Below, piece after piece: positions 2,690 to 24,447 of a stretch of 32,000 nt of DNA. Each line of letters opens with the position of its first letter. The stretch's first letter is position 1. The notes below the pieces were generated by a model. It was not told the DNA's origin, did not search any database, and saw only the letters and a program-made list of their open reading frames with translations. Source of the stretch: an uncultured Gammaproteobacteria bacterium (GTDB taxonomy: Bacteria; Patescibacteriota; Microgenomatia; Daviesbacterales; UBA10151); NCBI GenBank assembly GCA_964360965.1, contig CAYHYM010000006.1, forward strand, positions 12,265-44,264, read 5' to 3'. Made by a program: the position numbers and the translations under genes.

Positions 2690-3301
2690 TTACTCCATTG
2701 TACGCTCAGGGCCTTGATCTCTATATGTATCAATAAACTGTCCTATTCTGGCAGCATCTAATGAATCAAACTTATCCAAGTATGTCCAAGCTGTTAGGGC
2801 AAAATTGGTATCAAGATTTTGTCTGGGAACAACTATTAATTTTCTTTGACCTTTTTTCTCGTAAACTTGAGCCAGTTGATCTTTCCTTCCTTCACACTCG
2901 TCATTGCGAGGAGCCGCAGGCGACGTGGCCCGCTTCGCCGACTCAGCGAGGCGAGCAATCTCTTCATTTTCCGAGGAAGATTGCTTCCCCCTCGCTTCGC
3001 TCGGGGTCGCAATGACACATTTGTAACTCATGATAATATACCCATGCTCCAATGAATGAACTAAGTTTCTATCATCTTTGGGCTCATCATAAACTCCTGC
3101 CCGAATCCAGTCCTCATAATGTTTACCGGAAGTTGGAGGATTTGAATTATACTCAACTTGTTCCCCTATTGGTACATGTCCTCTGCCTAAATCATCCAGC
3201 TTGGTGCCAGGCAAAGGTTTTGAGGATTCAATAAACAGCCAAGCAAGAAAAACTACAACCAAGGCAGCTATCACCCCTGATATAACCCATTTGTTACCCA
3301 T
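2690..3301 (-). CDS. DUF3105-like membrane-anchored protein carrying a 39-codon repeat-element insertion
   Basis: N-terminal TM segment, then GHVP...YNSNPPTSGKHY...EHGYIIMSY typical of DUF3105. The ATG at 3301 overlaps the upstream stop (TAATG). Residues VIATPSEARG...APRND are encoded by the GC-rich element at 2900-3016. Confidence 0.6.
   Translation of the reverse strand: MGNKWVISGVIAALVVVFLAWLFIESSKPLPGTKLDDLGRGHVPIGEQVEYNSNPPTSGKHYEDWIRAGVYDEPKDDRNLVHSLEHGYIIMSYKCVIATPSEARGKQSSSENEEIARLAESAKRATSPAAPRNDECEGRKDQLAQVYEKKGQRKLIVVPRQNLDTNFALTAWTYLDKFDSLDAARIGQFIDTYRDQGPERTME
2900..3016. repeat. 117-bp GC-rich palindromic element (GTCATTGCGAG...TCGCAATGAC), in-frame inside the DUF3105 gene
   Basis: The terminal inverted repeats GTCATTGCGA / TCGCAATGAC match exactly. 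It is visibly GC-richer than its flanks. 117 bp equals 39 codons with no stop in the host frame. Confidence 0.75.
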
Positions 3302-4038
3302 TAGAAGATATTTTGTTGATTCTGGAAAACTAAATCATGATACTCCCAATACTTATTCTGGTCCCCGGCACATCTGGCTGCTTCTGCAGACTTTTGGGCT
3401 CCCGGGTGAATCTGGGGTAATGGAAAATCCCGATAGTAAAACTTTACTTTACCGGTATCTATATATTCCTTATTTAGTTGCTGTTCAGTTTGAGTAAAAT
3501 GCCTGGCGCAGAAAGGACACTGGTAATCAGAAAACTCCACCAAAGTCACTTTGGCAGAAGCCTTCCCCAGTGAAGGTAAATCACCATTTCCCACAGTTTC
3601 TCTTTGAACACTACCTGCTGCTGAACCAGAAAGTTCTTCTTCTATCACAGATTTAAATTGCTCAAAAGGAACTGCGCCGGAAATAAGCCTGCCATTGATA
3701 AAGAAGGCAGGAGTGCCATTAACCCCGGCTTTGGATCCCTCATCTAAATCAGCCTGAACTAAAGAGGCTTTATTACCTGAATCCAAACAAGAGTCAAATT
3801 TACCTTGATCTAATTTTAGTTGTCCTGCCAGACTCTTCAAGCCCTTAACAATGTCTGCTTCAGTCTTAGCTTGTTGAGGTGCAGCAGGTTGAGCAGCAGT
3901 AGGAGCAGCTTGTTGTGGTTGAGTTGGCTTACCCAGTTTGATAATCCCACCATGCATTAAAACAGCCACAGCCACCATCACAGATCCCAAAAGGATTGCA
4001 ACCTGGGTAGATTTTAAGGGATTTAGGGAATTTTGCAT
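3301..4038 (-). CDS. DsbA-family thiol:disulfide oxidoreductase with N-terminal TM anchor and Ala/Pro/Gln-rich linker
   Basis: ATG at 4038. CPFC redox motif (SDYQCPFCARH). GTPAFFINGRLISGAVPFEQF resembles the DsbA/thioredoxin_4 C-terminal region. Confidence 0.75.
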   Translation of the reverse strand: MQNSLNPLKSTQVAILLGSVMVAVAVLMHGGIIKLGKPTQPQQAAPTAAQPAAPQQAKTEADIVKGLKSLAGQLKLDQGKFDSCLDSGNKASLVQADLDEGSKAGVNGTPAFFINGRLISGAVPFEQFKSVIEEELSGSAAGSVQRETVGNGDLPSLGKASAKVTLVEFSDYQCPFCARHFTQTEQQLNKEYIDTGKVKFYYRDFPLPQIHPGAQKSAEAARCAGDQNKYWEYHDLVFQNQQNIF

Positions 4039-4052
4039 GTTGGCTTAGTTTA

Positions 4053-4646
4053 TCAATTGTACTGATTTTGTGCAACAGTCAAACCTTTTTCTAAAAGTAT
4101 CTGTAAAGCCTTTACTGCTTGCTTTAGCATATGTTTAACCTGCGATCTTTCTGAATGTATAAAAGGCCCTAAAACAAAATGTTCAGCATTAAAATGTATT
4201 GCTTTGTGCTCTCCGCTTTGAGACTTTAAATTGCCAATTCCAAGTCTGACTCTGATAAATTGATCAGACCCCAAAGCGCTGATTACGGATTCTACCCCAT
4301 GATGTCCTGCTGCTGCACCTCCCATTCTTACCTTAATTTTCCCCAAAGGCAAATCCAAATCATCATGAACCACAATTAGATTGGTAGGTGGCTCGCCTCG
4401 CGAAGCGGGTAGCCTGTAGTAGGTAGTAAGCAGTTTAACAGCTAGACCAGAATTATTCATGTAAGTTTGAGGACGAGCCAAAATTATCTCTTCTTTTTTT
4501 ACTATTTCCGACTTAAATTTCTCTTCCATTCCCCAATCTCCCCAATCACCCTTACTTCTAAATTCCTCCACTGCCAAAAACCCTAAATTATGTCTGACAC
4601 CTTCATATTTTTCCCCAGGATTTCCTAAACCAACTATTAATTTCAT
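4053..4646 (-). CDS. pth: Peptidyl-tRNA hydrolase
   Basis: MKLIVGLGNPGEKYEGVRHNLGF N-terminus, VVHDDLDLPLGKIKVR and GHHGVES motifs. ATGA overlap with the upstream gene. Confidence 0.9.
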   Translation of the reverse strand: MKLIVGLGNPGEKYEGVRHNLGFLAVEEFRSKGDWGDWGMEEKFKSEIVKKEEIILARPQTYMNNSGLAVKLLTTYYRLPASRGEPPTNLIVVHDDLDLPLGKIKVRMGGAAAGHHGVESVISALGSDQFIRVRLGIGNLKSQSGEHKAIHFNAEHFVLGPFIHSERSQVKHMLKQAVKALQILLEKGLTVAQNQYN

Positions 4647-5299
4647 GTTAACAATTTTACCACCTCTTCATCTAAAACAGGGTTAAATTCATTATAAAAC
4701 TGGCCAACTGCTTGAAAGTATTCCGGGGTCTCTAAAACCACCACTTCCCCAATCCGCCGGCTGGCGGACCCTAATTCCCTAACTACCCTATCTACAGCTT
4801 CTTTGCTTGCCACAGGTACAGCCAAAATTATCTTTTTAGCCATATGTCTTTTTAAATATCTAATAGCTGAAAGCATGGTGGCTCCGGTTGCTATCCCATC
4901 ATCAACTAAAATAACAGTTTTCCCCCTTACCAGCTTCACAAGGCCAGGCCTTGCGTGCCTATATTCTTTTTCTCTCCTTTTAATCTCCTCTAACTCCCTT
5001 AATACCCCTAATTTTAACTGCTCAGGCCCAATTCCAAGTTCACTTAACAATCCTTCTTCCCAAAACACCTCACCATCCGGGCCTACAGCTCCCAAAGCCA
5101 GTTCAGGCTGATTAGGGGCGCCAATTTTTCTGGTGACGACAATATCTAAAGGTAACCTAAGCTGGCTGGCCACTTCTTTGGCCACTGCCACCCCTCCTCT
5201 GGGAATACCTAAAACAATTGCATCCCCAACATTCCTAAACTCCCCAAGTCTTTGAGCCAGTAATTTTCCAGCTGCTTGTCTATCTTTGAATATCTTCAT
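4643..5299 (-). CDS. Predicted phosphoribosyltransferase (type I PRT fold)
   Basis: ATG at 5299. PRPP-binding loop VILVDDGIATGATM, and an N-terminal GIPRGGVAVA region. Confidence 0.7.
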   Translation of the reverse strand: MKIFKDRQAAGKLLAQRLGEFRNVGDAIVLGIPRGGVAVAKEVASQLRLPLDIVVTRKIGAPNQPELALGAVGPDGEVFWEEGLLSELGIGPEQLKLGVLRELEEIKRREKEYRHARPGLVKLVRGKTVILVDDGIATGATMLSAIRYLKRHMAKKIILAVPVASKEAVDRVVRELGSASRRIGEVVVLETPEYFQAVGQFYNEFNPVLDEEVVKLLT

Positions 5300-5351
5300 A
5301 ATATATCAGGAGCAGCGAAGTCACAATCCCACCCTGTGACGAGCTACGACC

Positions 5352-6740
5352 TTAATCAAAAAGCCCTAATTGTGGAGCTTCAACTTGCTCCTCTTTAGCC
5401 GGATCCACTCCATCCTGCCATATCTTCACCACTCCATAAACTCCATCATAGCCTGGGTCAATCACCAAATCTCCTAATCTTGCCTTTTCCACTCCTTCTG
5501 CTATTTTTGAGTCGGATATTTTTGTTATTTCAGAAGTTTCAATCTTAGTTAATATTTTTAGCTCATTTCCCAATATCTTTGTTAACTTTTTATACTCATT
5601 TAATACTTTTTGGCTTGTTACAGAGGACTTTAATGCTTCTGAAATAATTTGTAAAAAAGGCACCAACATTCTATATCCGGGCCTATTTGCCATTGTTTGG
5701 CTTTTTATTACCCCATTCTCCCTGATCACCCCCAACTCACTAACATCCCTAACTGCAATCTCCTCCACTCTTTCCATCACCCCCACAGTCAAACCCCGAC
5801 CGCATTTGGGGCAGGTAGCCCCTTTGGTTTTGGTATCCTCAGGAGAATATTTAATATTGCAATTTCTATGCCCGGTATAATGATACTTCCCTTCTTCAGG
5901 ATAAAACTCAATAGTTCCTGCCACCTTGTCATCCCCGCGTAGGCGGGGATCCAATTTCGAACTAGAGTTGTTTAATTGGATTCCTGCATTCGCAGGAATG
6001 ACGGTAGGGCTTTTAATTGCTCTATATAAACCATAATAGCTGAACTCTCCTTCTATGACTGTTGCCTCCCTACCCAAATTTGGTAAAGAATGAGCATCAG
6101 AAAAAGAAACAATAGATCTATTATCCAACTCCTTTATCCGCCAATTCATGGCCGGGTCGCTCGAGAGTCCTGTCTCAATTCCATAGATGTAATCTGTCAA
6201 ATCTTCAAAACAGTCTTCCAAAGAATCATACCCTGATTCTGAACCAAATATTCCAAACCAGGGAGTCCAGGCATGCGCCGGGATAAAAAGGGTCTTTTCA
6301 GATGCTTGCAAAGCTAAACTTAATAAATCTTTGGAAGAAATCCCCACAATCGGTCTTCCGTCAGAACCTAAAGTTGCCCTTCTTGATAAGAGGGCTTTTT
6401 GAAAAGCTTCAGCTGAAGCAAAATCAGGCATAAAAACCAGATTGTGAACTCTTCTTACTCTACCTTTATGAGAATAAATAGAGGCAATCTCCACAGTTAA
6501 AACAAACTTGACCTCACTTCCAGCCAAAGGCTGGTCGTCCTTTGGACGAAAAAACCCTGATCCATCTTCTTTAAGCTGGCTTTTAAGTTCTGCAAACCAG
6601 AGAGGGTGTAAAAAATCCCCTGTCCCCAAAAGATCAATTCCCTTCAGCTTTGCCCACTCTGCTAGGTTCGGAATATTCAATTGTGGCGAACATGCCCTGG
6701 AAAACCTGGAATGAATATGCAAATCAGCTACATATGCCAT
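5352..6740 (-). CDS. PHP-domain nuclease, Endonuclease Q-like (TIGR00375-type), with a 25-codon repeat-element insertion
   Basis: Preferred ATG at 6740 (MAYVADLHIHSRFSRACS), 1 nt after the ligase stop. PHP metal motifs DLHIHS and IPAHAWTPW are present. A C-terminal Zn-finger-like stretch reads KYHYTGHRNC...CPKCGRGLTVGVMERV. VIPANAGIQ...RLRGDD is encoded by the element at 5928-6002. Confidence 0.6.
   Translation of the reverse strand: MAYVADLHIHSRFSRACSPQLNIPNLAEWAKLKGIDLLGTGDFLHPLWFAELKSQLKEDGSGFFRPKDDQPLAGSEVKFVLTVEIASIYSHKGRVRRVHNLVFMPDFASAEAFQKALLSRRATLGSDGRPIVGISSKDLLSLALQASEKTLFIPAHAWTPWFGIFGSESGYDSLEDCFEDLTDYIYGIETGLSSDPAMNWRIKELDNRSIVSFSDAHSLPNLGREATVIEGEFSYYGLYRAIKSPTVIPANAGIQLNNSSSKLDPRLRGDDKVAGTIEFYPEEGKYHYTGHRNCNIKYSPEDTKTKGATCPKCGRGLTVGVMERVEEIAVRDVSELGVIRENGVIKSQTMANRPGYRMLVPFLQIISEALKSSVTSQKVLNEYKKLTKILGNELKILTKIETSEITKISDSKIAEGVEKARLGDLVIDPGYDGVYGVVKIWQDGVDPAKEEQVEAPQLGLFD
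5928..6002. repeat. 75-bp palindromic element, family A copy 1, in-frame in the EndoQ-like gene
   Basis: GTCATCCCCGCGTAGGCGGGGATCC...GGATTCCTGCATTCGCAGGAATGAC. It has two 8-bp-stem hairpins flanking a central spacer. 66 of 75 positions are identical to the copy at 15260-15334. Confidence 0.85.
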
Positions 6741-6741
6741 A

Positions 6742-8511
6742 TTATTTTTGGTATTGTTGATTATACATCTCAATTAACTCTTTAACTGTAGTGGCATCTT
6801 CAGCTTTTTTATCAGCCTCACGGAATTTAACTAAACGAGGAAACCTTAGGGCATATCCAGCCTGTCCTGAGCCTGCCGAAGGAGTTCTATCCATCCCGGC
6901 TGTATGATTTGGGGATCTGGTAATTTCATCTGCCAAAACTTCTATTACAATTTCCGGAGCTATCCAGACAGAAGGAACCAAGATAGCATTAACTCTGGCT
7001 GGTTTTTTATCTACCTTGATTTTGTCTGCTTTTTTGTGTACCTCCCTCCATTCCTCATCTGTTAAACCTGTGCCAATTTTAGACACTGTCACAAATTCAT
7101 CTTTTTTATCATCATAAACTCCTACCAATAGTGCCCCGGCACCAAAAGCAGACCTCTTTCCTTTTCCAAAAATATATCCTAAAATTACACAATCAATGGT
7201 ATCTTTTAACTCCCCGCTTGAATGTCTTTTCAGTTTTACCCAGTTAAAATTCCTGGCCCCTGCCTCATATTTGGAAGTGGGCCTTTTAACAATTAACCCC
7301 TCCAAACCTTTAGTGAGCGCATCATCAAAAAGTTCCTGTATTCTGTCTGATGAATCCGTAATCTCACCTACTTCTGGAATTAATACTTCATTACCCTTGA
7401 TTCTTGATTCTAAAAGCTTGATTCTCTCTCTTAATGGAGTATCCATTAAAGATTTACCATCCAAATACATCACATCAAATACAAAAGCTTTTAATGGAAG
7501 CTTTGCCGCCATTTCCTCAATTCCATATTTGCGACGCCTTTTAGTGGTCTCCTGAAAAGGTAAAAATTCTTCAGATACCGGATTAAAAGCCAGGGCTTCT
7601 GAATCTAAAATTGCAGTTTTTGCTTTTACTTGTGACAAAACTCCTTGGATAATATCCGGAAACATGGGGGTAGTTTCCTCTAAATTTCTGGAGAATAACC
7701 TAATTTTATCCCCGTCTTTGTGAATCTGTACTCTAAACCCGTCAAATTTTTGTTGCACATGAGCCTCCCAGCCAAATTTTTCCAGAATTGTTTTTGGATC
7801 CGGTAATCTTTCTGCCAATTGTGATCTGATGGGTCGACCTACAGTTACATCCAATCCCCGAACTCCCCGAATCCCCCGACTCCACAAAATTTCTCCAATC
7901 AAACCTAAATCAGAAACGCGGTTATAAGCAGCCTCAAGAATGGGTCGTTTGGCCCTGTCCCGAGCGAATACGAGGGCAAAAGCATCCAAAATTGTCGGGT
8001 CACCAATTCCCAATCTTGACACTCCCAAAGGAATCCTGACTAAATGCTTGGCACCTATTCCGTCTACTTTTTGTAAAAGTCCAGCCAAGCTGGATATTTT
8101 CTTTTCCACTGTTCCCTCCCCTGTGGTCTTTGCTATATTCCTAAGTGTTTCGAATACTTCATTTACTGTCATCCCGAATTTATTTCGGGATCTCTTTTGA
8201 GATTCTGAAACAAGTTCAGAATGACGTTCGGCTACCAATCCTAAATCCCCTATCCTTCCATATTCTTTGAGTACCTGCTCACGTTCTATTCCATAAGTTC
8301 TGGCCATGGCAGCTGCCACACTTTTCTCTGCCATGCCAATCTCTAATGGTTCATAAAATGGGGCCACCCTACCTTGTAGCAAATAACAAACCTTGGCTAT
8401 CTCATCAGACTTTACTTTAGAAAAAAGCTCAGCCAAAATATCAATCAGGACCAGTCTTGATGAGGTTCCTTCAAGTTTTTCAAAATACTCAGTCAGTTTT
8501 GCAAATAACAT
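6742..8511 (-). CDS. lig: ATP-dependent DNA ligase, archaeal/eukaryotic Lig1-like three-domain type
   Basis: Preferred ATG at 8511 (MLFAKLTEYFEKLEGTSSR), with AAGGAA 7 nt upstream. Adenylation motif I is QQKFDGFRVQIH (KxDG). Also present are EGLIVK, a WVKLK-type motif and a C-terminal LRFPRLVKFREADK. The track ORF starts earlier at a GTG. Confidence 0.9.
   Translation of the reverse strand: MLFAKLTEYFEKLEGTSSRLVLIDILAELFSKVKSDEIAKVCYLLQGRVAPFYEPLEIGMAEKSVAAAMARTYGIEREQVLKEYGRIGDLGLVAERHSELVSESQKRSRNKFGMTVNEVFETLRNIAKTTGEGTVEKKISSLAGLLQKVDGIGAKHLVRIPLGVSRLGIGDPTILDAFALVFARDRAKRPILEAAYNRVSDLGLIGEILWSRGIRGVRGLDVTVGRPIRSQLAERLPDPKTILEKFGWEAHVQQKFDGFRVQIHKDGDKIRLFSRNLEETTPMFPDIIQGVLSQVKAKTAILDSEALAFNPVSEEFLPFQETTKRRRKYGIEEMAAKLPLKAFVFDVMYLDGKSLMDTPLRERIKLLESRIKGNEVLIPEVGEITDSSDRIQELFDDALTKGLEGLIVKRPTSKYEAGARNFNWVKLKRHSSGELKDTIDCVILGYIFGKGKRSAFGAGALLVGVYDDKKDEFVTVSKIGTGLTDEEWREVHKKADKIKVDKKPARVNAILVPSVWIAPEIVIEVLADEITRSPNHTAGMDRTPSAGSGQAGYALRFPRLVKFREADKKAEDATTVKELIEMYNQQYQK
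8168..8225. repeat. ~58-bp palindromic element (GTCATCCCGAA...TTCAGAATGAC) inside the DNA ligase gene
   Basis: It has two hairpin arms (TCCCGAAATAAATTCGGGA-type and TTCTGAAACAAGTTCAGAA) and shares the GTCAT/ATGAC termini. It is read in a different phase from the other copies (ERHSELVSESQKRSRNKFGMT). Exact insertion boundaries are uncertain. Confidence 0.65.
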
Positions 8512-8517
8512 AAAGTT

Positions 8518-8539
8518 TCCTTGCCTTCGCAGGGACGAC
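8518..8539. repeat. Single-arm copy of family A in the ligase 5' UTR
   Basis: TCCTTGCCTTCGCAGGGACGAC matches the right arm of the copy at 15313-15334 at 20 of 22 positions, and the last 14 nt are identical. It lies 7-28 nt upstream of the ligase ATG. Confidence 0.65.
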
Positions 8540-8589
8540 ACTATGTGTCGATTGTAATAGATTAAGCAAATATTGTAAAATATGTTGCT

Positions 8590-10417: not shown

Positions 10418-10418
10418 G

Positions 10419-14603: not shown

Positions 14604-15556
14604 TTTGGACAAAAGTATGTTCCCCTTCCTCTCAATTGTACCTTTTTAATTTCTGTTCCACAGATCTTGCACGGATGTCTATCTCTACCATAAACAAAAG
14701 CATAGTCTAAAAAATAGCCTTTGTGACCCTCAGTATCCACAAAATGGGCCCTGGTGGAACCACCATGCTTAATACCATCCCTTAGCGCCCTGATCAACCC
14801 GTCATACAGTGCTTGAAACTGTTTATCAATCAGATTAACCACTTTAGTGCGGGGATCAATTTTGGCATTAAAACAAGCCTCGTTGGCATAAATATTTCCC
14901 ACTCCGGAAACCACTGTTTGATCCATAATCGCCACTTTCACAGGCATATTTTTATGTTTTAAAAGATTTTCTTTTAATACTTGCCAGCTAAATCCTTTTT
15001 CCAGGGGCTCTGGCCCTAAGTTTTTTAGATCCTTCGCTTCGCTCAGGATGACAGTGGGCATCACTTTAATCCAGCCGAAGCGCCGCTGGTCATTAAAATA
15101 AAGATGGGATCCATTACTGAAGCTAAAAATAACCCTGGTATGGGAATTGGGCATTTTACCCACCATATCAGGAGTTGGATGGCCACCAACAAAACGTTTG
15201 CCGTCCTCATATATGAGCTGGCCTGTCATTTTCAGATGAAAAAGTAAGGTTACCCCAACGTCATTCCCGCGGAGGCGGGAATCCAATTCCGAACTAGAGT
15301 TTTCTAATTGGATCCCTGCATTCGCAGGGACGACGTCCACTCCTATATACTTACCTTTTCTCCAGATATTGAGCACTTTCTTACCCTGTAAGCCCTGAGT
15401 GAAGCCCGCCCTGAGCGAGGCCGAAGGGTCGAAGGGTTTACCATTTTGATTTAAGAAAGATTTAGCAGAAAGTATTTGAATTTTCTTAATGATTAAACCA
15501 ACTATTTTCTTTTCTAAACCTAGTTTGATAGTTTCTACTTCAGGAAGTTCTGGCAT
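14588..15556 (-). CDS. mutM: Formamidopyrimidine-DNA glycosylase (Fpg/MutM) carrying three repeat-element insertions
   Basis: Preferred ATG at 15556 giving MPELPEVETI (catalytic Pro2). H2TH region VSGVGNIYANEACF. C-terminal zinc finger CKICGTEIKKVQLRGRGTYFCPKCQ. Extra segments relative to E. coli Fpg coincide with the elements at 15026-15052, 15260-15334 and 15384-15436. Confidence 0.85.
   Translation of the reverse strand: MPELPEVETIKLGLEKKIVGLIIKKIQILSAKSFLNQNGKPFDPSASLRAGFTQGLQGKKVLNIWRKGKYIGVDVVPANAGIQLENSSSELDSRLRGNDVGVTLLFHLKMTGQLIYEDGKRFVGGHPTPDMVGKMPNSHTRVIFSFSNGSHLYFNDQRRFGWIKVMPTVILSEAKDLKNLGPEPLEKGFSWQVLKENLLKHKNMPVKVAIMDQTVVSGVGNIYANEACFNAKIDPRTKVVNLIDKQFQALYDGLIRALRDGIKHGGSTRAHFVDTEGHKGYFLDYAFVYGRDRHPCKICGTEIKKVQLRGRGTYFCPKCQKF
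15026..15052. repeat. 27-bp single-hairpin element (GTCATCCTGAGCGAAGCGAAGGATCT on the gene strand) in Fpg
   Basis: Encodes VILSEAKDL in the inter-domain linker of Fpg. It has the same terminus and phase as the other GTCAT elements. Confidence 0.6.
15260..15334. repeat. 75-bp palindromic element, family A copy 2, in-frame in Fpg
   Basis: 88% identical to 5928-6002, with the same orientation and codon phase. Encodes VVPANAGIQLENSSSELDSRLRGND between two beta strands of the Fpg N-terminal domain. Confidence 0.85.
15384..15436. repeat. GC-rich CCCTGAG.../...CGAAGGG repeat (family D) inside Fpg
   Basis: CCCTGTAAGCCCTGAGTGAAGCCCGCCCTGAGCGAGGCCGAAGGGTCGAAGGG. It shares CCCTGAGCGA and GTCGAAGGG modules with the intergenic copy at 16722-16789. 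Encodes ...FDPSASLRAGFTQGLQG. Confidence 0.55.
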
Positions 15557-16712
15557 GTTTTTGGACAAGATCTAAAATCTCTTCCTTAAACCTTTCTTTG
15601 GAAAATTTTTGAGATTGCCTTAGGCAGTCTTCAGGTTTAAATTTGGCAGGATCAAACTTTTTTAAAGCTGCCATAAGATTGTCTGTTGTTACCGTGCCAG
15701 GACCTCCGTAAAGTAAACCAGTCTTACCATCCACCACACTTTCTAAAAACCCACCAGCCTTTGGGGCTATTACTGGAGTTCCTGTGGCCATACTCTCAAC
15801 AGGCACTATACCAAAATCCTCATCTTCGGATGCCACAATCAATGCTTTGGCATTTTGCAAAAGTCTTACTCTCTCCTGATCAGACACCCATCCTAAAAAT
15901 TCAATATTTTTGAACCCCGCGGAGCCTTGGCGAAGTGGGGCAATTTCCGGTCCATCCCCGGCAACCTTAAGTGGTAAACCCAACTTCCCACAAGCTTCCA
16001 CCACTACATCCACTCCCTTTCCCCTTACTAGTCTACTTAAAACTAAGAAATATTTTTTGTCATCCTGAGGCTTTGCCGAAGGATCTCCAGGTTTAATCTT
16101 GAGATTCTTCACGGAGTTTAGAATGACAGATATATCCACAGGTGGATATATCATCACCGAATCCCTTCTGTAAAATTTTTTAATTCTTTGGGCCACATTT
16201 TTTGAGTTAGCCACCAAAATATCAGGCCTCTGAGAGGTTTCAAAATCATAAATTCGCAAAATATGGTTGGCCAGTTCCCCAAACACCCTGGTCCACCAGT
16301 GTTTTTTATAGTTAAAAGAAGTTGCATACCCATATAAATAACGCGGTGGAGTATGGATATAGCTGATATGCAGGCTTTCTGGTTTGGTAATAACAGCCTT
16401 GGCAAAATAGGTGTTACAAGAGGAAATCACCAAGTCATATTCAGATAGATCAAAACTTTCAAACATCATTGGCGCAAATAATCTGAAGGGAGAAAGAAGT
16501 TGATTTGCAAATGGAAATTTTTGCAAACCTGATGTTCTTATATCCCAGTCTTTAAATCTCTTTCCATTTTCCCCCATTGCATCCAAATTTACATAAGCTG
16601 TATACAAAGGAGCATCCGGCCAAATCTCACGTAAGGCTTCCAAAACCCTCTCAGCGCCACCATACTCTTTTAAATAGTCATGTATCAAAGCTACTTTTAA
16701 ATTTTTATCCAT
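15540..16712 (-). CDS. Glycosyltransferase, GT4 / group 1 family
   Basis: ATG at 16712. N-terminal HDYLKEYGGAERV, and a C-terminal EDFGIVPVESMATGTPVIA (E-x7-E type motif). Contains the 23-codon element at 16059-16127. Confidence 0.8.
   Translation of the reverse strand: MDKNLKVALIHDYLKEYGGAERVLEALREIWPDAPLYTAYVNLDAMGENGKRFKDWDIRTSGLQKFPFANQLLSPFRLFAPMMFESFDLSEYDLVISSCNTYFAKAVITKPESLHISYIHTPPRYLYGYATSFNYKKHWWTRVFGELANHILRIYDFETSQRPDILVANSKNVAQRIKKFYRRDSVMIYPPVDISVILNSVKNLKIKPGDPSAKPQDDKKYFLVLSRLVRGKGVDVVVEACGKLGLPLKVAGDGPEIAPLRQGSAGFKNIEFLGWVSDQERVRLLQNAKALIVASEDEDFGIVPVESMATGTPVIAPKAGGFLESVVDGKTGLLYGGPGTVTTDNLMAALKKFDPAKFKPEDCLRQSQKFSKERFKEEILDLVQKHARTS
16059..16127. repeat. 69-bp palindromic element (family B, GTCATCCTGAGG...TTTAGAATGAC) in-frame in the glycosyltransferase gene
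   Basis: Inverted arms share the GTCAT/ATGAC termini. 69 bp equals 23 codons (VILNSVKNLKIKPGDPSAKPQDD). Confidence 0.75.
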
Positions 16713-16721: not shown

Positions 16722-16789
16722 CCCTGAGCGAAGTCGTACTTCGATTCCACTCAGTACGACCCTGAGTGTTAATCGAATGGGTCGAAGGG
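16722..16789. repeat. 68-bp GC-rich family-D repeat in the 5' UTR of the glycosyltransferase gene
   Basis: CCCTGAGCGAAGTCGTACTTCGA...GTACGACCCTGAG...CGAATGGGTCGAAGGG, lying 10 nt upstream of the ATG at 16712. Confidence 0.6.
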
Positions 16790-16794: not shown

Positions 16795-17388
16795 TTATGA
16801 TATCATTTTTTTTCGCCATTTAGTAAGCCATAAATAGATCAGTCCATAAAGTATGGTCCCTATTACTCCTACTACCAAATCATTGACCACATCAAAAGTT
16901 CCTCTGACATTGTGAGTTTTTAAAAATACATCAGTGTAATATTCTTGGGCTTCAAGTAACAGATGAATAATATTTGCCAGCCCCACCCCACCCCAAAAAC
17001 TCCAGCCGAAAGCACCCAAAAGTACTGCTGCTAAAGCAGCTGTGGAATGAAAATGAGGGATTAAATCAAAGTAAAAGTAAGAATCATATAAATTAAAAGA
17101 GTTCCCGGCCATATCCAGCCAGAAAATGGATAAATAAAGATTATCCCACCAAAATGGATACTTGTGGTGAGCGAACTTGTGGTGAGAGTAACCGAACCAG
17201 TCGAACCATTTTTTCTTCCAAAAATACAATACAGGAAAAAGTAAACTTAAAGTGATCACAATAATAAAATTTCTAATGGGAATAGCTTTGCCGGCAAATC
17301 TGGGATCATCCGGAAAAAGCAAAACTTCTCCTAAAAAGTAAAGGATAGAAAGCCTGATGACGATGTTAATTATTAATCCCCAGTTCAT
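16795..17388 (-). CDS. Integral membrane protein, function unknown
   Basis: ATG at 17388, several hydrophobic helices, aromatic- and His-rich loops. The 49-bp family-C repeat lies inside it at 17161-17209. Confidence 0.5.
   Translation of the reverse strand: MNWGLIINIVIRLSILYFLGEVLLFPDDPRFAGKAIPIRNFIIVITLSLLFPVLYFWKKKWFDWFGYSHHKFAHHKYPFWWDNLYLSIFWLDMAGNSFNLYDSYFYFDLIPHFHSTAALAAVLLGAFGWSFWGGVGLANIIHLLLEAQEYYTDVFLKTHNVRGTFDVVNDLVVGVIGTILYGLIYLWLTKWRKKMIS
17161..17209 (+). repeat. 49-bp family-C repeat (CTTGTGGTGAGCGAAC...GTCGAACCAT) inside a membrane-protein gene
   Basis: 41 of 49 positions are identical to the reverse complement of 24399-24447. It contains internal direct repeats: CTTGTGGTGAG twice and CGAACC twice. 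Confidence 0.75.
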
Positions 17389-17488: not shown

Positions 17489-18205
17489 ATGCAAAAAGGG
17501 CAAACACAGGTTTTAATATTGGCTGGAATAGTAATTTTACTAGCTTTGGCCGGAGGGATATTTTTCCTGGGCAGACTAACTGCACCTAAAACTCAGACTC
17601 CAGTGGTTACCTCCTCTCCTCAACCATCCCCCTTGTCCACCGAAGCTTCAGCGAAGGTGGAGAATCCCACTACCAACTGGAAAACATATACAAATAGTAC
17701 TTATGGTTACTCTTTCAAGTATCCGGAAGATTGGATCTTGGATACATCTAAAGTGGAACCCGCAACATATAATAATGCTATTGCCTCCCCAAATACAAGT
17801 TCGGTTATTTTAACAAAAGATGGTTATGAATTTAGTTTTTCTTACTACTTAGAGGGAGTAGGCGGTGTATGCTCAATAGCGGCAAAAGTGGAGGAGGTGG
17901 ATATTAGTGGCAGTAAGTTTTTGAAAAAGTATGTGAATACAAAATCAAATCCTCTCTGCTTCCCAGAAGGAGCGGGCGGGGAGGGCTACAAACCAAAACA
18001 AGAGTGTTATGATCATTTCAATGTAATTTGGATAAATAGCTTTCCTGATACGTATTCTTGTGCTTCATCATTTGTGCATATAAATGGAAAAAATTCAGAA
18101 ATATCATTTAGCCTACCTAAATTAATAAAAGTAGGTGATAAAGAATTCTCTCTATATGAGGAAGCATTTAACCAAATCCTTTCCACCTTTAGATTCACCC
18201 AGTAG
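17489..18205 (+). CDS. Secreted or membrane-anchored protein, function unknown
   Basis: ATG at 17489. An N-terminal hydrophobic anchor, then a Pro/Ser/Thr linker, then NWKTYTNSTYGYSFKYPEDW, a pattern common in extracytoplasmic hypotheticals. Confidence 0.55.
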   Translation: MQKGQTQVLILAGIVILLALAGGIFFLGRLTAPKTQTPVVTSSPQPSPLSTEASAKVENPTTNWKTYTNSTYGYSFKYPEDWILDTSKVEPATYNNAIASPNTSSVILTKDGYEFSFSYYLEGVGGVCSIAAKVEEVDISGSKFLKKYVNTKSNPLCFPEGAGGEGYKPKQECYDHFNVIWINSFPDTYSCASSFVHINGKNSEISFSLPKLIKVGDKEFSLYEEAFNQILSTFRFTQ

Positions 18206-18215: not shown

Positions 18216-18250
18216 GTTACGTAATGAGTTACGTAATGCATTACGTAATT
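18216..18250. repeat. Three tandem 12-bp units, each containing the 8-bp palindrome TTACGTAA
   Basis: GTTACGTAATGA / GTTACGTAATGC / ATTACGTAATT. Palindrome copies lie at 18217-18224, 18229-18236 and 18241-18248, an exact 12-bp period. They fill the gap between two convergent genes. Confidence 0.7.
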
Positions 18251-19061: not shown

Positions 19062-19116
19062 TACTTATTCTACCACAACCTGTCCAGATTCTTCTTGATG
19101 ACGACAATCATTAGGA

Positions 19117-19485
19117 TCACCGAGGTTTAATTATCTTTTTTTTATTGTCTGGCTCTTCATTACGTCTGTGAAGAGCGACAGCTACTGTCACTGCCATCCC
19201 AGTCGCTGCTACAGCTGTCGCTCCTGCTGCAATCAGTAGCGCTTTTCCATGACCAGAGACAAAAGCAAAAATATGTTTACCCTCCTTAACCTTAGCCAAA
19301 ATGCCATCATTATCTGGTCGTATTAAAAATTCAACAGCCTTATCCCTTACTCTCTCCACAGTTTCTGGCCTATCGGGGTTTAATGGAGTAGCAACATTAT
19401 CAATCAATACAATTCCAGGAATTATCTCTAAATTAGGTGGATAATCTCCCCATGATTCTGGTAAATCACTTTTTGTTTCTCTCAT
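19117..19485 (-). CDS. Hypothetical protein with C-terminal Ala/Thr/Val-rich TM anchor
   Basis: The ATG at 19485 forms an ATGA overlap with the polA stop. 122 aa, with no recognisable motifs. Confidence 0.45.
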   Translation of the reverse strand: MRETKSDLPESWGDYPPNLEIIPGIVLIDNVATPLNPDRPETVERVRDKAVEFLIRPDNDGILAKVKEGKHIFAFVSGHGKALLIAAGATAVAATGMAVTVAVALHRRNEEPDNKKKIIKPR

Positions 19486-21686
19486 AAGGGTTTCATTTCT
19501 CCCCAGTTTGGGCCTATTTTCAGGTCCACAACCACTGGCACAGATAACTTTATAGCATTTTCCATTTTGTCTTTGACCATCAAGGCCACTTTGTGGACTT
19601 GTGGTGAGCTTGTCGAACCATCACATTCAAATAACAATTCATCATGCACTTGCAGGATCATTGAACAAGATTGCTTTGCTTCGCTCGCAATGACAGAGGA
19701 GATTTCCACCATAGCTTTTTTAATAATGTCAGCTTGGGTTCCCTGTACTGGGTGATTAATAGCCATTCTCTCCCCTGCTGCCTTGATCATTCTATTGCTA
19801 GTTTTAAGTTCTGGGATATATCTTTTTCTTCCCCAAATAGTTTCTACATAGCCATTCTCATATCCAAATTCCAAAGTTTTTTGCATCCATTCTCGAACCT
19901 TTGAGAATTGTTCAAAGTATTCAGTAATATAAGTTCTTGCTTCCTCAAATGAAATTTTTAGCTGACGGGACAAAGCATGTGGACCTTGGCCATACAATGT
20001 TGCAAAGTTCATTGTTTTCCCCACCATTCTTTGCTGTTTGCTTACTTTATCAATAGGTACTTTAAAAATCTTTGAAGCTGTTGCTGCATGAATATCCAAA
20101 CCTTCATCGAATGCTCTTTTTAAATTAGTATCATCAGCCAGATGAGCCATAATCCTCAGCTCAATCTGGGAATAATCTGCTGCCAAAATTATCTTTCCTT
20201 TTGGAGCAAGGAAGGCTTTTCTAATTTCCCCACCCTCCTCCCCTTTCACGGGAATATTTTGTAAATTAGGATTTTGTGAGGAAAGTCTACCTGTAGCAGC
20301 GCCTTCAACATTAAAAGTGGAATGTATCCGACCATCCTGACCCACTGATTTAGGCAGAGCATCAATATAGGTGGATACCAGTTTAAAAAGCTGGCGATAT
20401 TCCAAAAGCATCGGCACCACAGGATGGGCCGTTGCCAATTCATGTAGTGTTTCCTCATCTGTTGATCTACCGGTTTTGGTTTTTCTAAAAACAGGTAAGT
20501 TTAGCTCATCAAAAAGCACTTCTGATAATTGCTTTGGACTGTTTAAATTAATCTGATGGCCTATTTTTGAGTAAATTTCTTTCTCAAGTTTTTGTAGTCT
20601 GCCTTTTAAATCTTTCCCTAATTTGCTTAAAAACTTCAAATCTATTAAAACTCCGGTTTTAGACATTTTCTGTAGGACTTTTTCCACTTCTTGATCTAAA
20701 TTTGTTGTTTTGTCATTCTGATCCTGAGCATTAGCCGAAGGAGAAGAATCTCTAGATTTTAAGTCTTGAGATCCTTCACTAGCGTTCAGGATGACAGAAG
20801 CACCTGGGATCCTTCCAATCAAACTTCTAAACTCCAGCTCTTCAAACAACTTAATCACCTCCTGTTTATCAAAATCGTGCACTTCACATGCTTTTAAATC
20901 CAACCTAATTGGGGCTTTCAAATCCAAAGTTGCCAGTTTTTTACTCATCACAGCTTGCTCTACTCCCTCAGCTAGTAGAGTTTGCAACCTAGTAGGCAGA
21001 GTTTTTAAATTTTTTGGTTGATAGATTTTTTCCACTGAACCAAATTGTTGGATTAACTTGGTAGCCCAAGTTTCCCCTATCCCATTCACCCCAGGGATGT
21101 TATCAGATTGATCTCCAGCTAGGCCCTTATAATCTATTAACTTACTTGGTTCAAAACCATATCTTGTCACAAACTCGCTGACTCCATAAAGCCCCACATC
21201 TTGGAGAGTTTTCCTAGGCATTAACACCTTTATATTTTTATCAATTAACTGCATAATATCTCTATCCCCCGTGATCACTATCACCTCGAGGTTTTTTTGT
21301 TTTTTGGCTTGGGTAGCTAAAGTACCTATCAAATCATCAGCTTCATATCCAGAAAGACTAAATTGAGGAATATTAAAAGCTTTGGCTACTTGATAAACTC
21401 TGTCAAATTGAGAAGATAAACCATCATCAGCTGGACCACGGGTTGCTTTATACTGAGTGTAGGCTTGATGTCTAAAGGTAGGTCCTTTTTCGTCCCAAGT
21501 TAAGCCTAAAAAGTCTGGCTTCAGATCAGCTAAAGCTTTTAAAATCATGGAGGAAAAGCCATAAACCGCATTAACCAACTCACCCTTGGAGGTGGTAAAA
21601 GGAGGAGTGGCATGATAGGCCCTGTGCAACAGAGCGTTACCATCAATCAGAACCAGTCTTCTTGTCCTGAGCAAAGCCCGATTCAT
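19482..21686 (-). CDS. polA: DNA polymerase I, two-domain form (5' nuclease + polymerase, no 3'-5' exonuclease domain)
   Basis: Preferred ATG at 21686 (MNRALL...); the track start is a TTG. 5'-nuclease LVLIDGNALLHRAYHA. Pol motif A is DYSQIELRIMAHL, motif B is RMVGKTMNFATLYG, motif C is QVHDELLFE. Only about 35 residues separate the nuclease domain from the thumb region (VEKVLQKMSKTGVLIDLKFL). Confidence 0.9.
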   Translation of the reverse strand: MNRALLRTRRLVLIDGNALLHRAYHATPPFTTSKGELVNAVYGFSSMILKALADLKPDFLGLTWDEKGPTFRHQAYTQYKATRGPADDGLSSQFDRVYQVAKAFNIPQFSLSGYEADDLIGTLATQAKKQKNLEVIVITGDRDIMQLIDKNIKVLMPRKTLQDVGLYGVSEFVTRYGFEPSKLIDYKGLAGDQSDNIPGVNGIGETWATKLIQQFGSVEKIYQPKNLKTLPTRLQTLLAEGVEQAVMSKKLATLDLKAPIRLDLKACEVHDFDKQEVIKLFEELEFRSLIGRIPGASVILNASEGSQDLKSRDSSPSANAQDQNDKTTNLDQEVEKVLQKMSKTGVLIDLKFLSKLGKDLKGRLQKLEKEIYSKIGHQINLNSPKQLSEVLFDELNLPVFRKTKTGRSTDEETLHELATAHPVVPMLLEYRQLFKLVSTYIDALPKSVGQDGRIHSTFNVEGAATGRLSSQNPNLQNIPVKGEEGGEIRKAFLAPKGKIILAADYSQIELRIMAHLADDTNLKRAFDEGLDIHAATASKIFKVPIDKVSKQQRMVGKTMNFATLYGQGPHALSRQLKISFEEARTYITEYFEQFSKVREWMQKTLEFGYENGYVETIWGRKRYIPELKTSNRMIKAAGERMAINHPVQGTQADIIKKAMVEISSVIASEAKQSCSMILQVHDELLFECDGSTSSPQVHKVALMVKDKMENAIKLSVPVVVDLKIGPNWGEMKPL
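19598..19621 (+). repeat. 24-bp internally deleted family-C repeat inside polA
   Basis: CTTGTGGTGAGC + TT + GTCGAACCAT retains both termini of the 49-bp element. 24 bp equals 8 codons. Confidence 0.6.
19668..19694. repeat. 27-bp single-hairpin element (GTCATTGCGAGCGAAGCAAAGCAATCT on the gene strand) inside polA
   Basis: Encodes VIASEAKQS. It shares the GTCATTGCGAG terminus with the element at 2900-3016. Confidence 0.6.
20712..20795. repeat. 84-bp palindromic element (family B) forming the inter-domain linker of Pol I
   Basis: GTCATTCTGATCCTGAGC...GCGTTCAGGATGAC. 84 bp equals 28 codons (VILNASEGSQDLKSRDSSPSANAQDQND), located exactly between the 5'-nuclease and polymerase domains. Confidence 0.75.
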
Positions 21687-21725
21687 GCTCAAATTGTAAC
21701 ACTACTTGGGGTTAAATTCTAATGA

Positions 21726-22523
21726 TCATTGAGCAGTTGAGGATGGAGTGGAACTGCGGCGATCTCTTTGTTGATTGATCACTTCTTCCTTGATATTCTG
21801 GCGTTTTTTTCGTAAATCCAAAATCTCATCTTTAAGCTTCTCTCTAACATTTTCCCTGCACCCTATTACTCTTTCTTTCAAAGCCTGTTTTTGATCATCA
21901 GCCAAACTTGAGGTTGTTGCTTCCCTGGTTAAGAATCTGCAGGCAAGGGCCTGATGAGCAGCAATTTTTCTGATCAGTTGCTGTTGTCTGGTAATATCCA
22001 GTTTTGTAAGAAGCTCTCTGTTGTGCTGCTCTGCCCGCTTTAAACTTTCCAATATAGCTGCCTTGGCAGAAGGATTTCCCACCTGATCATAAACCCGGGC
22101 CAAAACATCCACATGCCTGGAAATAGCTTCACCTGCTCTGACTGAACTGTCATTACCGCTTTGTGAAAACTGCCCAACTTGAGTAATATGCCTGAGATAT
22201 TTATCCAAAGTGGGCTGGATCATTTCCTGCTGTTTTACTTTGATAAGAGACTTAACCTCTCTTAGTCTTCTTTGGGCAAACTCCAGTTCTCTGTTTAATT
22301 TAGCCTCACTGCTGACAGAGAAGGCCAGTTCAATTTGCTCTCTTAAAGTTTTTAAAAAATACAGCGGGGAGGCCGGATGAACCAAAGATTCACCAATCTC
22401 CACAGCCTCAGGTTCAGGAGCTACGGCAACCAAATCTTCTTCCTGGGCATAGGCTGTTGAGCAATTGGATAAAAAGAGGGTTAAGGATAAAGCCAAAACT
22501 GCCAAGACAATGGTAACGCGCAT
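21726..22523 (-). CDS. Secreted helical protein, DUF5667-like
   Basis: Preferred ATG at 22523 gives a signal-peptide-like MRVTIVLAVLALSLTLFLSNCSTAYA. HPASPLYFLKTLREQIELAF resembles the DUF5667 N-terminal motif as I recall it. Confidence 0.55.
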   Translation of the reverse strand: MRVTIVLAVLALSLTLFLSNCSTAYAQEEDLVAVAPEPEAVEIGESLVHPASPLYFLKTLREQIELAFSVSSEAKLNRELEFAQRRLREVKSLIKVKQQEMIQPTLDKYLRHITQVGQFSQSGNDSSVRAGEAISRHVDVLARVYDQVGNPSAKAAILESLKRAEQHNRELLTKLDITRQQQLIRKIAAHQALACRFLTREATTSSLADDQKQALKERVIGCRENVREKLKDEILDLRKKRQNIKEEVINQQRDRRSSTPSSTAQ

Positions 22524-22558
22524 CTTTAACACTATATTAGTCTACCTTAAATTAAATG

Positions 22559-24400
22559 TCAACTTTTTTTCTTTCCCACCAGTTTTTCAAATTCATCAGT
22601 ATCCAGAGTTTCTTTTTCAAGCAGGGTTTTGGCCACTTTATCAAGCTTGACTCTTTCCATCTTTAAGATTTTTTGAGCTTGTTTATAACAGGCATCAATA
22701 ATCTTTTTTATTTCCACATCTATTTTTGATTGCATTGATTCGGAAACATCCCCTCCTTCATCCGACATCCTGGGCCAAAGACCAAACATGGACCGGGACT
22801 TGATATTAATCGGCCCCAAAGAAGACATGCCATACTCCACCACCATTTCTCTGGCAATGGAGGTGGCAATCTCAATGTCATTGGCAGCCCCGGTTGATAA
22901 ATCCCCAAATACCATCTCCTCTGCTGCCCGACCACCCAAAGCTGTTGATATTTGCTCCAACAGTCTTGATTTGGTTTCATTTGACCTGTCCTCTGTTGGA
23001 GGAAACATGGTGTGACCCCCGGATATACCCCTGGCCACTATGGTGATTCTATGAACCGGATCAATATTGGGCAAGTGGTGCCCTACAATGGCATGACCTG
23101 CCTCATGATAGGCTGCCAATTTTCTGTCTTTTTCAGTCTGCATCCTTTTTCGCTGTGGCCCCAGTTTAACTTTAGTGGCAGCCTCTTCCAAATCTTTAGC
23201 CTCGATTGCTTTTTTGCCCTCCCGAGCTGCTAAAATTGCTGCTTCATTTAACATGTTACTCAGATCCGCTCCGGAAAAACCAACTGTACGTCTGGCCAGT
23301 CTCTCGATGTCAACATCATCTGTAAAGGGTTTACCCTTCATATGAAGTTTGATGATATCTTTTCGCTCCTCAATATCCGGCATATTTAAAACCACCCGCC
23401 TGTCAAATCTGCCTGGACGGACCAGGGCCGGATCCAGCAGATCTGGCCTGTTGGTGGCTGCCAGCACTATCACGCTCTCATTAGGAGTAAATCCATCCAT
23501 CTCCACTAGTATCTGATTTAGGGTTTGCTCTCTCTCATCATGCCCTCCTGACATGCCAAAACCGCGCATTCTGCCAATTGATTCAATCTCATCTATAAAA
23601 ATAATGGCTGGAGCGCTCTTTTTGGCTTGAACAAACATATCACGAACGCGGGAAGCACCAACACCTACCAACATTTCCATAAACTCAGATCCGGCAATTG
23701 AATAAAATGGCACTCCGGCTTCTCCTGCTACGGCGCGCGAAATTAGCGTTTTTCCACATCCGGGTGGACCCACCAAAAGTACTCCTTTGGGCGTTCTGGC
23801 CCCAATCTCTTTATACTTTGCGGGACTTTTTAAAAAATCAACTATCTCTTCAAGTTCCTTTTTGGCCTCATCTGCTCCTGCCACATCGGAAAATTTAATC
23901 TGTGGAGCATCTTTGGTAAAAAGGCGAGCCCTGGATTGGCCAAAAGAAAAAATTCCCCCTCCTGCTTCTTTGGCGTTTCTGAAGATTAAAAAGAAAAATC
24001 CCACCATCAAAAGAATTGGTAAGATCGCCCCTAAAACATTAAGCCAGGCCTCTTGAAAAGAAATATCTTTAATCTCAACTGTGGTTAATTTGGGATCAAC
24101 TCCTGAGGAATCCAGGATTTTATAAATTGACTCACCCGCCTCTTTTCTGGACATTAGTTTTTCATCAGAATCTTTGATTTGAGCAGATACTTTATCTCCT
24201 TCCAAAGATAATTTCTCCACCTTTCCCTCTTTGATCATATTTATAATCTGTGAAATGGGTACCTCATTTGAAGGAATTGAGGAGCCTGACAATTGATAAA
24301 AAAAGATCAAGGAAGCAACAGCAATAAGTGCATAAACAGCCACTCCTTTAAGGATGGATATGATCCGACCATTAAATTTTTTTTTATGGTTATTGGCCAT
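22559..24400 (-). CDS. ftsH: ATP-dependent zinc metalloprotease FtsH
   Basis: ATG at 24400. Two N-terminal TM segments, Walker A GPPGCGKT, Walker B IIFIDEIE, second region of homology, and the HEAGHA zinc motif. Confidence 0.95.
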
Positions 24401-24447
24401 GGTTCGACTACTTCGACTATGCTCAGTACAAGTTCGCTCACCACAAG
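24399..24447 (-). repeat. 49-bp family-C repeat abutting and contributing to the ftsH start codon
   Basis: The minus strand reads CTTGTGGTGAGCGAACTTGTACTGAGCATAGTCGAAGTAGTCGAACCAT followed by G. The conserved terminal ...CCAT supplies the A and T of the ftsH ATG. Confidence 0.75.

Follow-up and report, generated by a model that had tools for sequence, protein, structure and literature searches.

A 2024 review presents Rickettsia as the exceptional case of in-frame palindromic insertion: the Rickettsia palindromic elements (RPEs) are short repeats lying in frame in many housekeeping genes of a small, coding-dense genome, at positions compatible with the protein fold (PMC10969869). The elements described here resemble RPEs in these features and are found in a 32,000-nucleotide stretch of DNA, the window (contig CAYHYM010000006.1, positions 12,265 to 44,264), from a groundwater bacterium placed in the Daviesbacterales, within the Candidate Phyla Radiation (CPR). 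Their main superfamily begins with GTCAT and ends with ATGAC. The window has a GC content of 40%, is ~94% coding and carries nearly all its genes on the minus strand; the best named homologues of its proteins belong to Candidatus Daviesbacteria, Microgenomates and Patescibacteria. RPEs, reportedly described by Ogata et al. in 2000 and 2002, differ in that the classical RPE-1 measures ~150 bp and is unrelated in sequence to the window elements, and in that their host, Rickettsia, is an intracellular parasite from the Alphaproteobacteria rather than a CPR bacterium. Moreover, no report of multi-family hotspots combined with strong same-site DNA conservation is known to us for RPEs.

A second described group is that of the CGTC-tagged repetitive extragenic palindromes (REPs), characterized by a YGTC tag, an 8-9 bp stem starting with AT, a 4-5 nt loop and a 3-nt CCA tail (Di Nocera, De Gregorio & Rocco 2013, PMC3733652). 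Head-to-head dimers predominate, heterodimers occur, intragenic units are present and no transposase is linked to them (PMC3733652). Family CGTC-1 was equated with Neisseria dRS3 and with RPE-6 of R. conorii, and CGTC-4 with RPE-4; among the intragenic copies in the supplementary table are those encoding VIPAKAGI and LDSRFRGND and, in Pol I of Micavibrio, a doublet reading SIPAKAGIQ...DSRLRGNA (PMC3733652). This survey covers five phyla, none of them CPR, and its copies are mostly extragenic, whereas ~80% of the window copies are intragenic.

REPINs are GTAG-tagged REP doublets mobilized by a Y1 HUH transposase (RAYT) and are almost always extragenic. Like the window elements, they are inverted doublets of short hairpins that form a larger single-stranded DNA hairpin, with a high copy number and no autonomy; the window tag, on the contrary, is YGTC and not GTAG, and no RAYT or Y1_Tnp gene was seen in the window or in related loci. 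MITEs, the miniature inverted-repeat transposable elements (Coxiella QMITE, ERIC, Correia/NEMIS), are likewise small non-coding repeats able to extend or interrupt open reading frames (ORFs) in frame (PMC5896051, PMC10969869). They have terminal inverted repeats of 15-30 bp, target-site duplications (often TA) and a length of 100-400 bp, whereas the window elements share 5-nt termini, show no duplication and form units of 27-117 bp. Stem and loop are not the same in the two arms of a window doublet, which have only GTCAT/ATGAC and the ATCC(A) junctions in common; the flanks are Y on one side and R on the other. Finally, the Neisseria dRS3/NIME repeats have the same ATTCCC-N8-GGGAAT core as CGTC-1, and a Neisseria lactamica locus (L079) was matched by the search pattern. 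In contrast to the window elements, the Neisseria repeats cluster in intergenic mosaic arrays. They are also integration targets for prophages and insertion sequences.

The GTCAT...ATGAC elements of the window are probably palindromic, non-autonomous members of the CGTC-tagged REP superfamily. Their mobile unit would be a REPIN-like head-to-head doublet, kept in genes where it is in frame, stop-free, located in a permissive loop and translated. The assignment is made because the YGTC tag, the AT stem start and the head-to-head doublets match the published definition and because the same intragenic peptides occur. The tag is found on all 15 window arms (5 CGTC, 10 TGTC), and the stem starts with AT in 13 of them and with GT in F-R and D (letters as in Table 1). 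Stems are a perfect 8 bp in the arms of B, C and F, span 9 positions with two mismatches in G-R and J-R, and consist of 5 bp plus an inner stem in A, I and E. The loops of B and F are 4 nt long (GTAG, GAAT, GGAG, GAAT) and those of C 5 nt; outside the published 4-5 nt range are E and I, with a 3-nt GAA loop, and A-L, A-R and J-L, with longer inner hairpins. All four arms of B and F end in a CCA tail, while A, C, E, G, I and J have CTC, CTT or CTA. In the doublets, two dissimilar arms lie head to head on either side of a small palindromic spacer.

Judging from their sequence, B and F are CGTC-1 elements in every defining feature: they share the tag, the 8-bp stems, the 4-nt loops and the CCA tail. 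Published intragenic CGTC-1 copies encode VIPAxAGI and DSRLRGND, one of them in a Pol I linker, and the window peptides read VIPANAGIQ...RLRGDD and VVPANAGIQ...SRLRGND; VIPANAGIQLENSSSELDSR and SVILNASEGSQDLK are also among the element-encoded peptides. The remaining arm families (ATCCTGA...GAAGGAT, ATTGCGAG...GCAAT and ATTCTGAA...TTCAGAAT) share the YGTC tag and the AT start, and show CTC or CTT tails, purine-purine stem mismatches and 3-nt GNA loops. Arms with tails other than CCA are best seen as further families of the CGTC superfamily, outside families 1-4 as described. An earlier interpretation of the window made from its letters, the sequence-only reading, had offered RPEs as a precedent; the relation is closer than an analogy, as B and F have the anatomy of the family equated with RPE-6 and encode the same peptides. 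Its other statement, that no equivalent had been characterized, went too far with respect to the superfamily, but the presence and mostly intragenic position of such repeats in CPR bacteria are indeed unreported in the searched literature. A full-text literature search on the element peptide strings retrieved unrelated papers only, and Rfam 15 at the gathering threshold contained no family for the elements, the only hits in the window being two tRNAs.

The number of arms is far above that expected from composition. Under a strict screen (GTCRT, an outer stem of 5 bp without mismatch, then C), the window yielded 14 arms, whereas 200 dinucleotide shuffles gave 1.26 on average and at most 6. Twelve of these arms pair into six head-to-head doublets, and the other two are the single arms E and I. 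Upon folding as single-stranded DNA, B, C and F each form three hairpins (z = -4.6 to -6.5); J is weaker (z = -2.5 to -3.1), and the degenerate G folds weakly. For the single arms E and I, nearest-neighbour DNA folding was not significant and revealed no strand asymmetry. What argues for a strand-specific hairpin is the make-up of loops and mismatches: the GTCAT strand has loops of the GNA/GNAB type and purine-purine mismatches, both absent from its complement.

Direct inspection located all 14 copies that the sequence-only reading had counted as clear, at or close to the coordinates given for them: six GTCAT...ATGAC head-to-head doublets (A, B, C, F, G, J), three single arms (D, E, I) and five others (H, K, L, the third Fpg element and the third Pol I element). 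As it had also described, 11 of the 14 lie inside ORFs, and D, H and L abut start codons. The host genes encode a DUF3105 protein, a homologue of endonuclease Q (EndoQ), an ATP-dependent DNA ligase, Fpg, a GT4 glycosyltransferase, a membrane protein and Pol I. Two of its generalizations hold in part. Not every copy is richer in GC than the background, since C has 38% GC, and not every copy is a hairpin, since K, L and the third Pol I element do not fold and form a family of their own. A preference for DNA-repair genes is suggested by the window (6/8 copies, post-hoc p = 0.004) but is not claimed here, as hosts elsewhere include Rho, AtpG and GT4 as well as a Tgt-like ORF and membrane proteins.

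Intragenic copies are most likely translated, as the reading frames suggest. Nine of ten intragenic doublets, from the window and related loci, have a length that is a multiple of three (binomial p = 3.6e-4), and all are stop-free in the host frame. The sole intergenic doublet in the related Daviesbacteria loci measures 77 bp, and among the matches listed for other phyla and viral contigs, only 10/35 CGTC-1 doublets are multiples of three. In either orientation, exactly one frame of the 75-bp unit is open, and each of these two frames is in use (VIPANAGIQ...RLRGDD and SS..NWIPAFAGMT); hence, the Val-Ile phase needs no special mechanism. For G and J, the host frame is the sole open frame of six, which fits survivorship under translation and disfavours removal from the transcript. 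A metagenome scan with an over-specific spacer pattern yielded five loci only, three of them the same Rho gene. The claim that all lengths are multiples of three is correct for the lengths that had been listed but passes over C, with 58 bp and a different phase. The absence of stops was confirmed, as were the Val-Ile or Val-Val termini in 7/8 intragenic GTCAT-type copies, and the caveat that survivorship could account for the shared phase was well placed.

Comparison with orthologues indicates where the elements have entered. Among 120 Fpg homologues (base length ~280 aa), 49 have one loop, situated between two beta strands, enlarged by 9-34 residues. These inserts belong to at least seven peptide families, including the VPANAGIQ...RGND of the window, and in L123 the empty site is visible at the DNA level. 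In 119 Pol I homologues, the nuclease and polymerase domains are joined by a linker that varies from 26 to 77 aa and is filled by the same element families, and the loop before the QVHDE motif, where I is located, varies from 25 to 75 aa. At this last site, one element is read in two frames (VIASEAKQS and SSLRGPAKQS); thus, the conserved entity is the DNA and not the peptide. In the GT4 orthologue of L132, the place of G is taken by another element (SFPRKRES), and B adds ~23 residues relative to the EndoQ structure of Pyrococcus furiosus (5zb8). The complete 75-bp unit, spacer included, recurs in the genes for EndoQ, Fpg and Rho, in those for the ATP synthase gamma subunit and a membrane protein, and in the Pol I linker, in different genomes. 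The inserts of Fpg and Pol I are, on these alignments, lineage-specific and piled up in a few permissive loops and linkers, in agreement with the earlier placement of the inserts in turns or linkers. That they represent extra residues holds, for example, for F in Fpg and B in EndoQ; C, E and I, on the contrary, gain few or no residues compared to homologues and replace an existing variable loop sequence.

The AlphaFold model of Fpg is mediocre (predicted TM-score 0.57) and shows only that F lies between two beta strands. In a neighbour-joining tree of the Fpg core, all insert families were scattered and the window was split from its closest relative, the resolution being too poor to count gains. 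A protein search with concatenated element peptides returned 12 short spurious ORFs only. In Daviesbacteria, the Fpg linker (window 15026-15100; L122, L123) is usually a heptanucleotide tandem repeat, for example GTGAACA GTGAACA GGTTACA GGTGACA, encoding VNSEQVTGDSS. Nested insertions are seen in hairpin loops: VIPAN-AKPDLA-NAGIQ in the ATP synthase gamma subunit (L126:1683-1727), a ATCCTGAGC hairpin inside the ATTCT...AGAAT arm of J (window 20712-20750) and a further case at window 2900-2960. This suggests that hairpin loops are themselves sites of insertion or expansion.

Copies that occupy the same site in two genomes are conserved at the nucleotide level. Element F of Fpg is identical between the window and L122 at 71/75 nt and at 23/25 third positions, compared to 72% and 51% in the rest of the gene. 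For element I together with the third Pol I element, the window and L132 agree at 49/51 nt and 16/17 third positions (rest of the gene 73% and 50%), and for the Pol I linker doublet of L254 and L255 the values are 69/75 nt and 21/25 third positions (rest of the gene 72% and 45%). The same-site copies are thus 92-96% identical (84-100% at third positions), in host genes of ~72% identity with third positions at 45-51% (pooled binomial p = 7e-12). In the window-L122 pair of F, all differences are situated in loops or spacer and none in the stems. The orthology of these two copies rests on their identical left junction and orientation; the GTCGT terminus that they have in common was rejected as proof of common descent because D has the same variant arm. 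Conservation above the synonymous sites of the host is not predicted for plain decaying junk, as a neutral selfish insertion would be expected to lose its sequence no more slowly than those sites. Three explanations remain: the hairpin may be under selection, the copies may evolve in concert, or copies close to the consensus may have re-inserted repeatedly at the one site that permits it.

The CGTC-1 arm pattern was scanned in species-representative genomes (at least 120 loci) and in IMG/VR viral contigs (at least 120). The matches listed for the genomes come from more than 20 phyla with a host GC content of 33-71%, including Parcubacteria, Saccharibacteria and a metagenome-assembled genome (MAG) labelled as Nanoarchaeota. 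Among them, the arms avoid long ORFs (55/174 inside vs. ~127 expected at random), while no such avoidance of genes is seen in the window. Two of the loci also have a CGTC-1 pair in frame: L100 (the Nanoarchaeota-labelled MAG; 1510-1583), where the host is a DNA methyltransferase ORF, and L042 (Parcubacteria; 6951-7037, 87 bp), where it is a Tgt-like ORF; hence, in-frame intragenic copies are not limited to Daviesbacteria. The archaeal label of L100 could stem from misbinning. In viral contigs, the GTCATCCTGA...GAAGGATC family is just as common (142 copies, with Y before GTC in 95%). Of these copies, 92 have an inner segment of 7 nt; among them, covariation is seen at the inner pair (G-C 74, A-T 13), and 70% of the loops are of the GNA type. 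These features support a predicted hairpin on the GTCAT strand.

Several of these observations could also be expected if the hairpins were structured DNA or RNA of benefit to the host (supercoiling or gyrase sites, control of mRNA structure or ribosome binding, recombination or uptake signals), located in genes for want of intergenic space and kept by selection. The sequence-only reading had already asked whether they might be a structured nucleic-acid system. The conservation of same-site copies far beyond synonymous sites, the restriction of window-L122 differences to loops and spacer, the near-identity of CGTC-1 across this GC range and number of phyla among the matches listed, the covariation and GNA loops of the GTCATCCTGA family and the three copies abutting start codons all point in this direction. 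Such a function is nevertheless unlikely to be the main explanation: presence and absence vary among close orthologues, one site is occupied by different families in turn, the position relative to gene features is not fixed, and related loci differ several-fold in density. The published survey takes the uneven distribution among species as ruling out a general function (PMC3733652).

A second alternative is that the elements are intervening sequences, cut from the transcript so that the proteins are unaltered. The stable folding of the elements would suit this, and CPR bacteria are known for intervening sequences in their rRNA genes. Removal, however, would select neither for lengths that are multiples of three nor for stop-free host frames, nor would it explain why the host frame of G and J is the only open one of six; this alternative is very improbable. 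Still less credit can be given to the idea that there are no insertions at all, but native low-complexity linkers alike by chance, or assembly artefacts. It draws on the segments of C, E and I, which equal those of distant homologues in length, and is contradicted by identical DNA units in unrelated genes, by the empty sites in orthologues and by the motif count far above that of the shuffles. Moreover, an independent assembly from Hainich groundwater (well H51, 0.1-um fraction), with an identical FtsH, agrees with the window over 16.5 kb (99.96% identity, zero indels).

Membership of the CGTC superfamily and retention of in-frame, translated copies are preferred, although several points weigh against this interpretation. 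No mobilizing gene was found: Pfam scans of 30 window ORFs, and the Pfam matches for the other window genes on L121, contained no transposase family, as the sequence-only reading had noted for the window, and neither did ~190 kb of related Daviesbacteria loci. No insertion polymorphism was found between the two assemblies of the same population, and no target-site duplication was seen at the element junctions; a 3-nt duplication proposed from one junction (GAC|GTC...GAC) was rejected, as other copies are without it. The same-site conservation exceeds what neutral insertions would show, C, E and I replace loop sequence in a way that simple insertion leaves unexplained, and the presumed translation of the inserts is deduced from frame statistics only.

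According to the preferred interpretation, insertions would land essentially anywhere, and only in-frame, stop-free copies in permissive loops would survive; after transcription and translation, they would add residues to the loop or take the place of others. Mobilization would occur in trans on the single-stranded hairpin, through a putative enzyme, none being known for any CGTC element, a question that reportedly dates from the description of RPEs in 2000. Same-site copies would in addition be subject to selection on the hairpin or to some form of concerted evolution. A bolder proposal, which must be regarded as rather doubtful, is that CGTC doublets in Daviesbacteria, and more widely in CPR/DPANN genomes of high coding density, are maintained at the nucleotide level in essential genes and replace one another at a few loops through a conserved housekeeping enzyme, with no dedicated transposase. 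If true, this would explain how a ~25-nt hairpin stays nearly unchanged over such a range of GC content, across more than 20 phyla (among the matches listed) and in phages, and the tiny CPR genomes would offer the smallest list of candidates for the enzyme.

The coordinates of all copies are collected in Table 1, together with five weaker candidates.

Table 1. Repeat elements and weak candidates in the window, in window coordinates; z, folding score.
Element	Position	Strand	Description
A	2900..3016		117-bp head-to-head doublet, ATTGCGAG...GCAAT arm family, nested inner hairpins; in frame in DUF3105 gene, aa 96-134, VIATPSEARGKQS...PRND; z = -3.4
B	5928..6002		75-bp CGTC-1 heterodimer, 8-bp stems, loops GTAG and GAAT, CCA tails; in frame in EndoQ-like gene (VIPANAGIQLNNSSSKLDPRLRGDD); z = -5.4 to -6.5
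C	8168..8225		58-bp doublet, 8-bp stems, 5-nt loops, CTC tails; ATP-dependent DNA ligase gene, phase 1 (RHSELVSESQKRSRNKFGMT); variable loop, little net length added
D	8513..8539	-	Degenerate single arm (GTCGTCCCTGCGAAGGCAAGG) directly 5' of real ligase start codon (Met-11 of ORF)
E	15026..15052	-	Single arm GTCATCCTGAGCGAAGCGAAGGATC (VILSEAKDL), Fpg inter-domain linker; heptamer-repeat linker replaced, length unchanged
F	15260..15334		75-bp CGTC-1 heterodimer in N-terminal domain of Fpg, with a predicted beta strand on either side (VVPANAGIQLENSSSELDSRLRGND); same-site copy in L122 95% identical
Third Fpg element	15392..15436	-	CCCTTCGAC...GCTCAGGGCGGGC (FDPSASLRAGFT); 12-aa insert in 3/120 homologues
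G	16059..16127		69-bp degenerate doublet, GT4 glycosyltransferase gene (VILNSVKNLKIKPGDPSAKPQDD); L132 orthologue with CGTC-1 single arm at same site
H	16733-16760, within composite region 16722..16789		Upstream of GT4 start; units CCCTGAGCGAAG / GTCGTAC...GTACGAC / CCTGAG...TCGAAGG; z = -3.0
K	17159..17209	-	51-nt non-hairpin repeat (ATGGTTCGAC...GCTCACCACAAGT), in frame in membrane protein (WFDWFGYSHHKFAHHK); 84% repeat match
Third Pol I element	19597..19621 (approx.)	-	K/L family (GGTTCGACAAGCTCACCACAAGT; DGSTSSPQV); +4 aa; in 9/119 homologues
I	19668..19694	-	Single arm GTCATTGCGAGCGAAGCAAAGCAATC (VIASEAKQS), Pol I loop just ahead of QVHDE motif; loop is a clade hotspot
J	20712..20795		84-bp doublet and nested hairpin; most of Pol I linker between 5'-nuclease and polymerase domains (VILNASEGSQDLKSRDSS...QND)
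L	24399..24449	+	51-nt K/L-family copy, inverted relative to K, abuts ftsH start codon
w1 (weak)	4391..4413		GC-rich GCGAAGC-type mini-hairpin, peptidyl-tRNA hydrolase gene (LPASRGEPPT)
w2 (weak)	5309..5351		Intergenic GC-rich patch upstream of EndoQ-like gene
w3 (weak)	6864..6886		TCCTGAGC...CGAAGGA hairpin, ligase C-terminal domain (TPSAGSGQAG); loop longer than in most homologues
w4 (weak)	15915..15940		CCCCGC...GTGGGG hairpin, GT4 gene (APLRQGSAGF)
w5 (weak)	17647..17670		In PsbP-like ORF

Element D is non-coding: homologous ligases begin at Met-11 of the window ORF, so that D lies in the 5' leader of the ligase gene. The longest ligase ORF begins 10 codons too early (window 8511-8541), and its first residues, MSSLRRQGNF, are the translation of D. 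The 3' stem of D places AAGGA ahead of the real ATG, which could act as a ribosome-binding site.

The K/L family is a genuine repeat, with 84% identity over 51 nt between 17159-17209 and 24399-24449 and a short copy in Pol I. Its core is GGTTCGAC...GCTCACCACAAGT, also given as GGTTCGAC...GCTCAC(C/T)ACAAGT, and often begins with ATG. None of the three window members folds into a hairpin (z >= 0), and the family should be kept apart from the hairpin superfamily. Further copies are present at L123:2424, L132:12060 and 14365, and L133:12192, and in Pol I homologues the family gives rise to false N-terminal extensions (MVRLLRLRSAQVRSPQ). Its copies in the membrane protein and in Pol I are in frame, and ATG start codons are often provided by the family.

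Some neighbouring genes have features of their own. In the DsbA/thioredoxin-like ORF (window 3301-4038, minus strand), the Pfam halves are permuted: aa 64-132 match DSBA 124-190 and aa 156-243 match Thioredoxin_4 7-92, which could reflect a circular permutation or a fusion of fragments. The EndoQ homologue is of the archaeal type (5352-6773, minus strand; PDB 5zb8, E = 3e-44) and adjoins an ATP-dependent DNA ligase of the archaeal/eukaryotic type (6742-8541, minus strand; PDB 2hiv, E = 3e-129). In the Pol I of this clade (window 19482-21692, minus strand), the 5'-nuclease and polymerase domains are joined directly, without a 3'-5' exonuclease domain, and one Pol I homologue (P0229, 1153 aa) contains intein and LAGLIDADG Pfam domains. 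Genes of the 23S_rRNA_IVP family (PF05635) are located near Pol I in two related Daviesbacteria loci (L131:81-443 and L255:8268-8630). A second tRNA (window 31919-31990, plus strand; Rfam 45.9 bits), not reported by ARAGORN, neighbours the tRNA-Met at 31772-31843 (minus strand).

The kind of element found here has been described before; it is seen here in a new lineage and at high density. Its presence in CPR bacteria, the mostly intragenic position, the several families at shared hotspots and the nucleotide-level conservation at orthologous sites are all new. In-frame insertion of palindromic repeats is thereby extended to a second, unrelated lineage with reduced genomes, with the same published superfamily responsible. 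In this clade, repeat DNA has repeatedly served to rebuild a small number of loops in Fpg, Pol I, the ligase and GT4, which makes the elements a real source of variation in protein length and loops in CPR bacteria. They also affect annotation, through false N-terminal extensions (MSSLRRQGNF on the ligase; MVRL... or MNPSTSLR on Pol I homologues), inflated protein lengths and alignment gaps. The conservation of same-site DNA is a testable hint of function or of concerted evolution and, together with the lack of transposases seen, makes these small genomes a good place to seek the activity that mobilizes CGTC elements.

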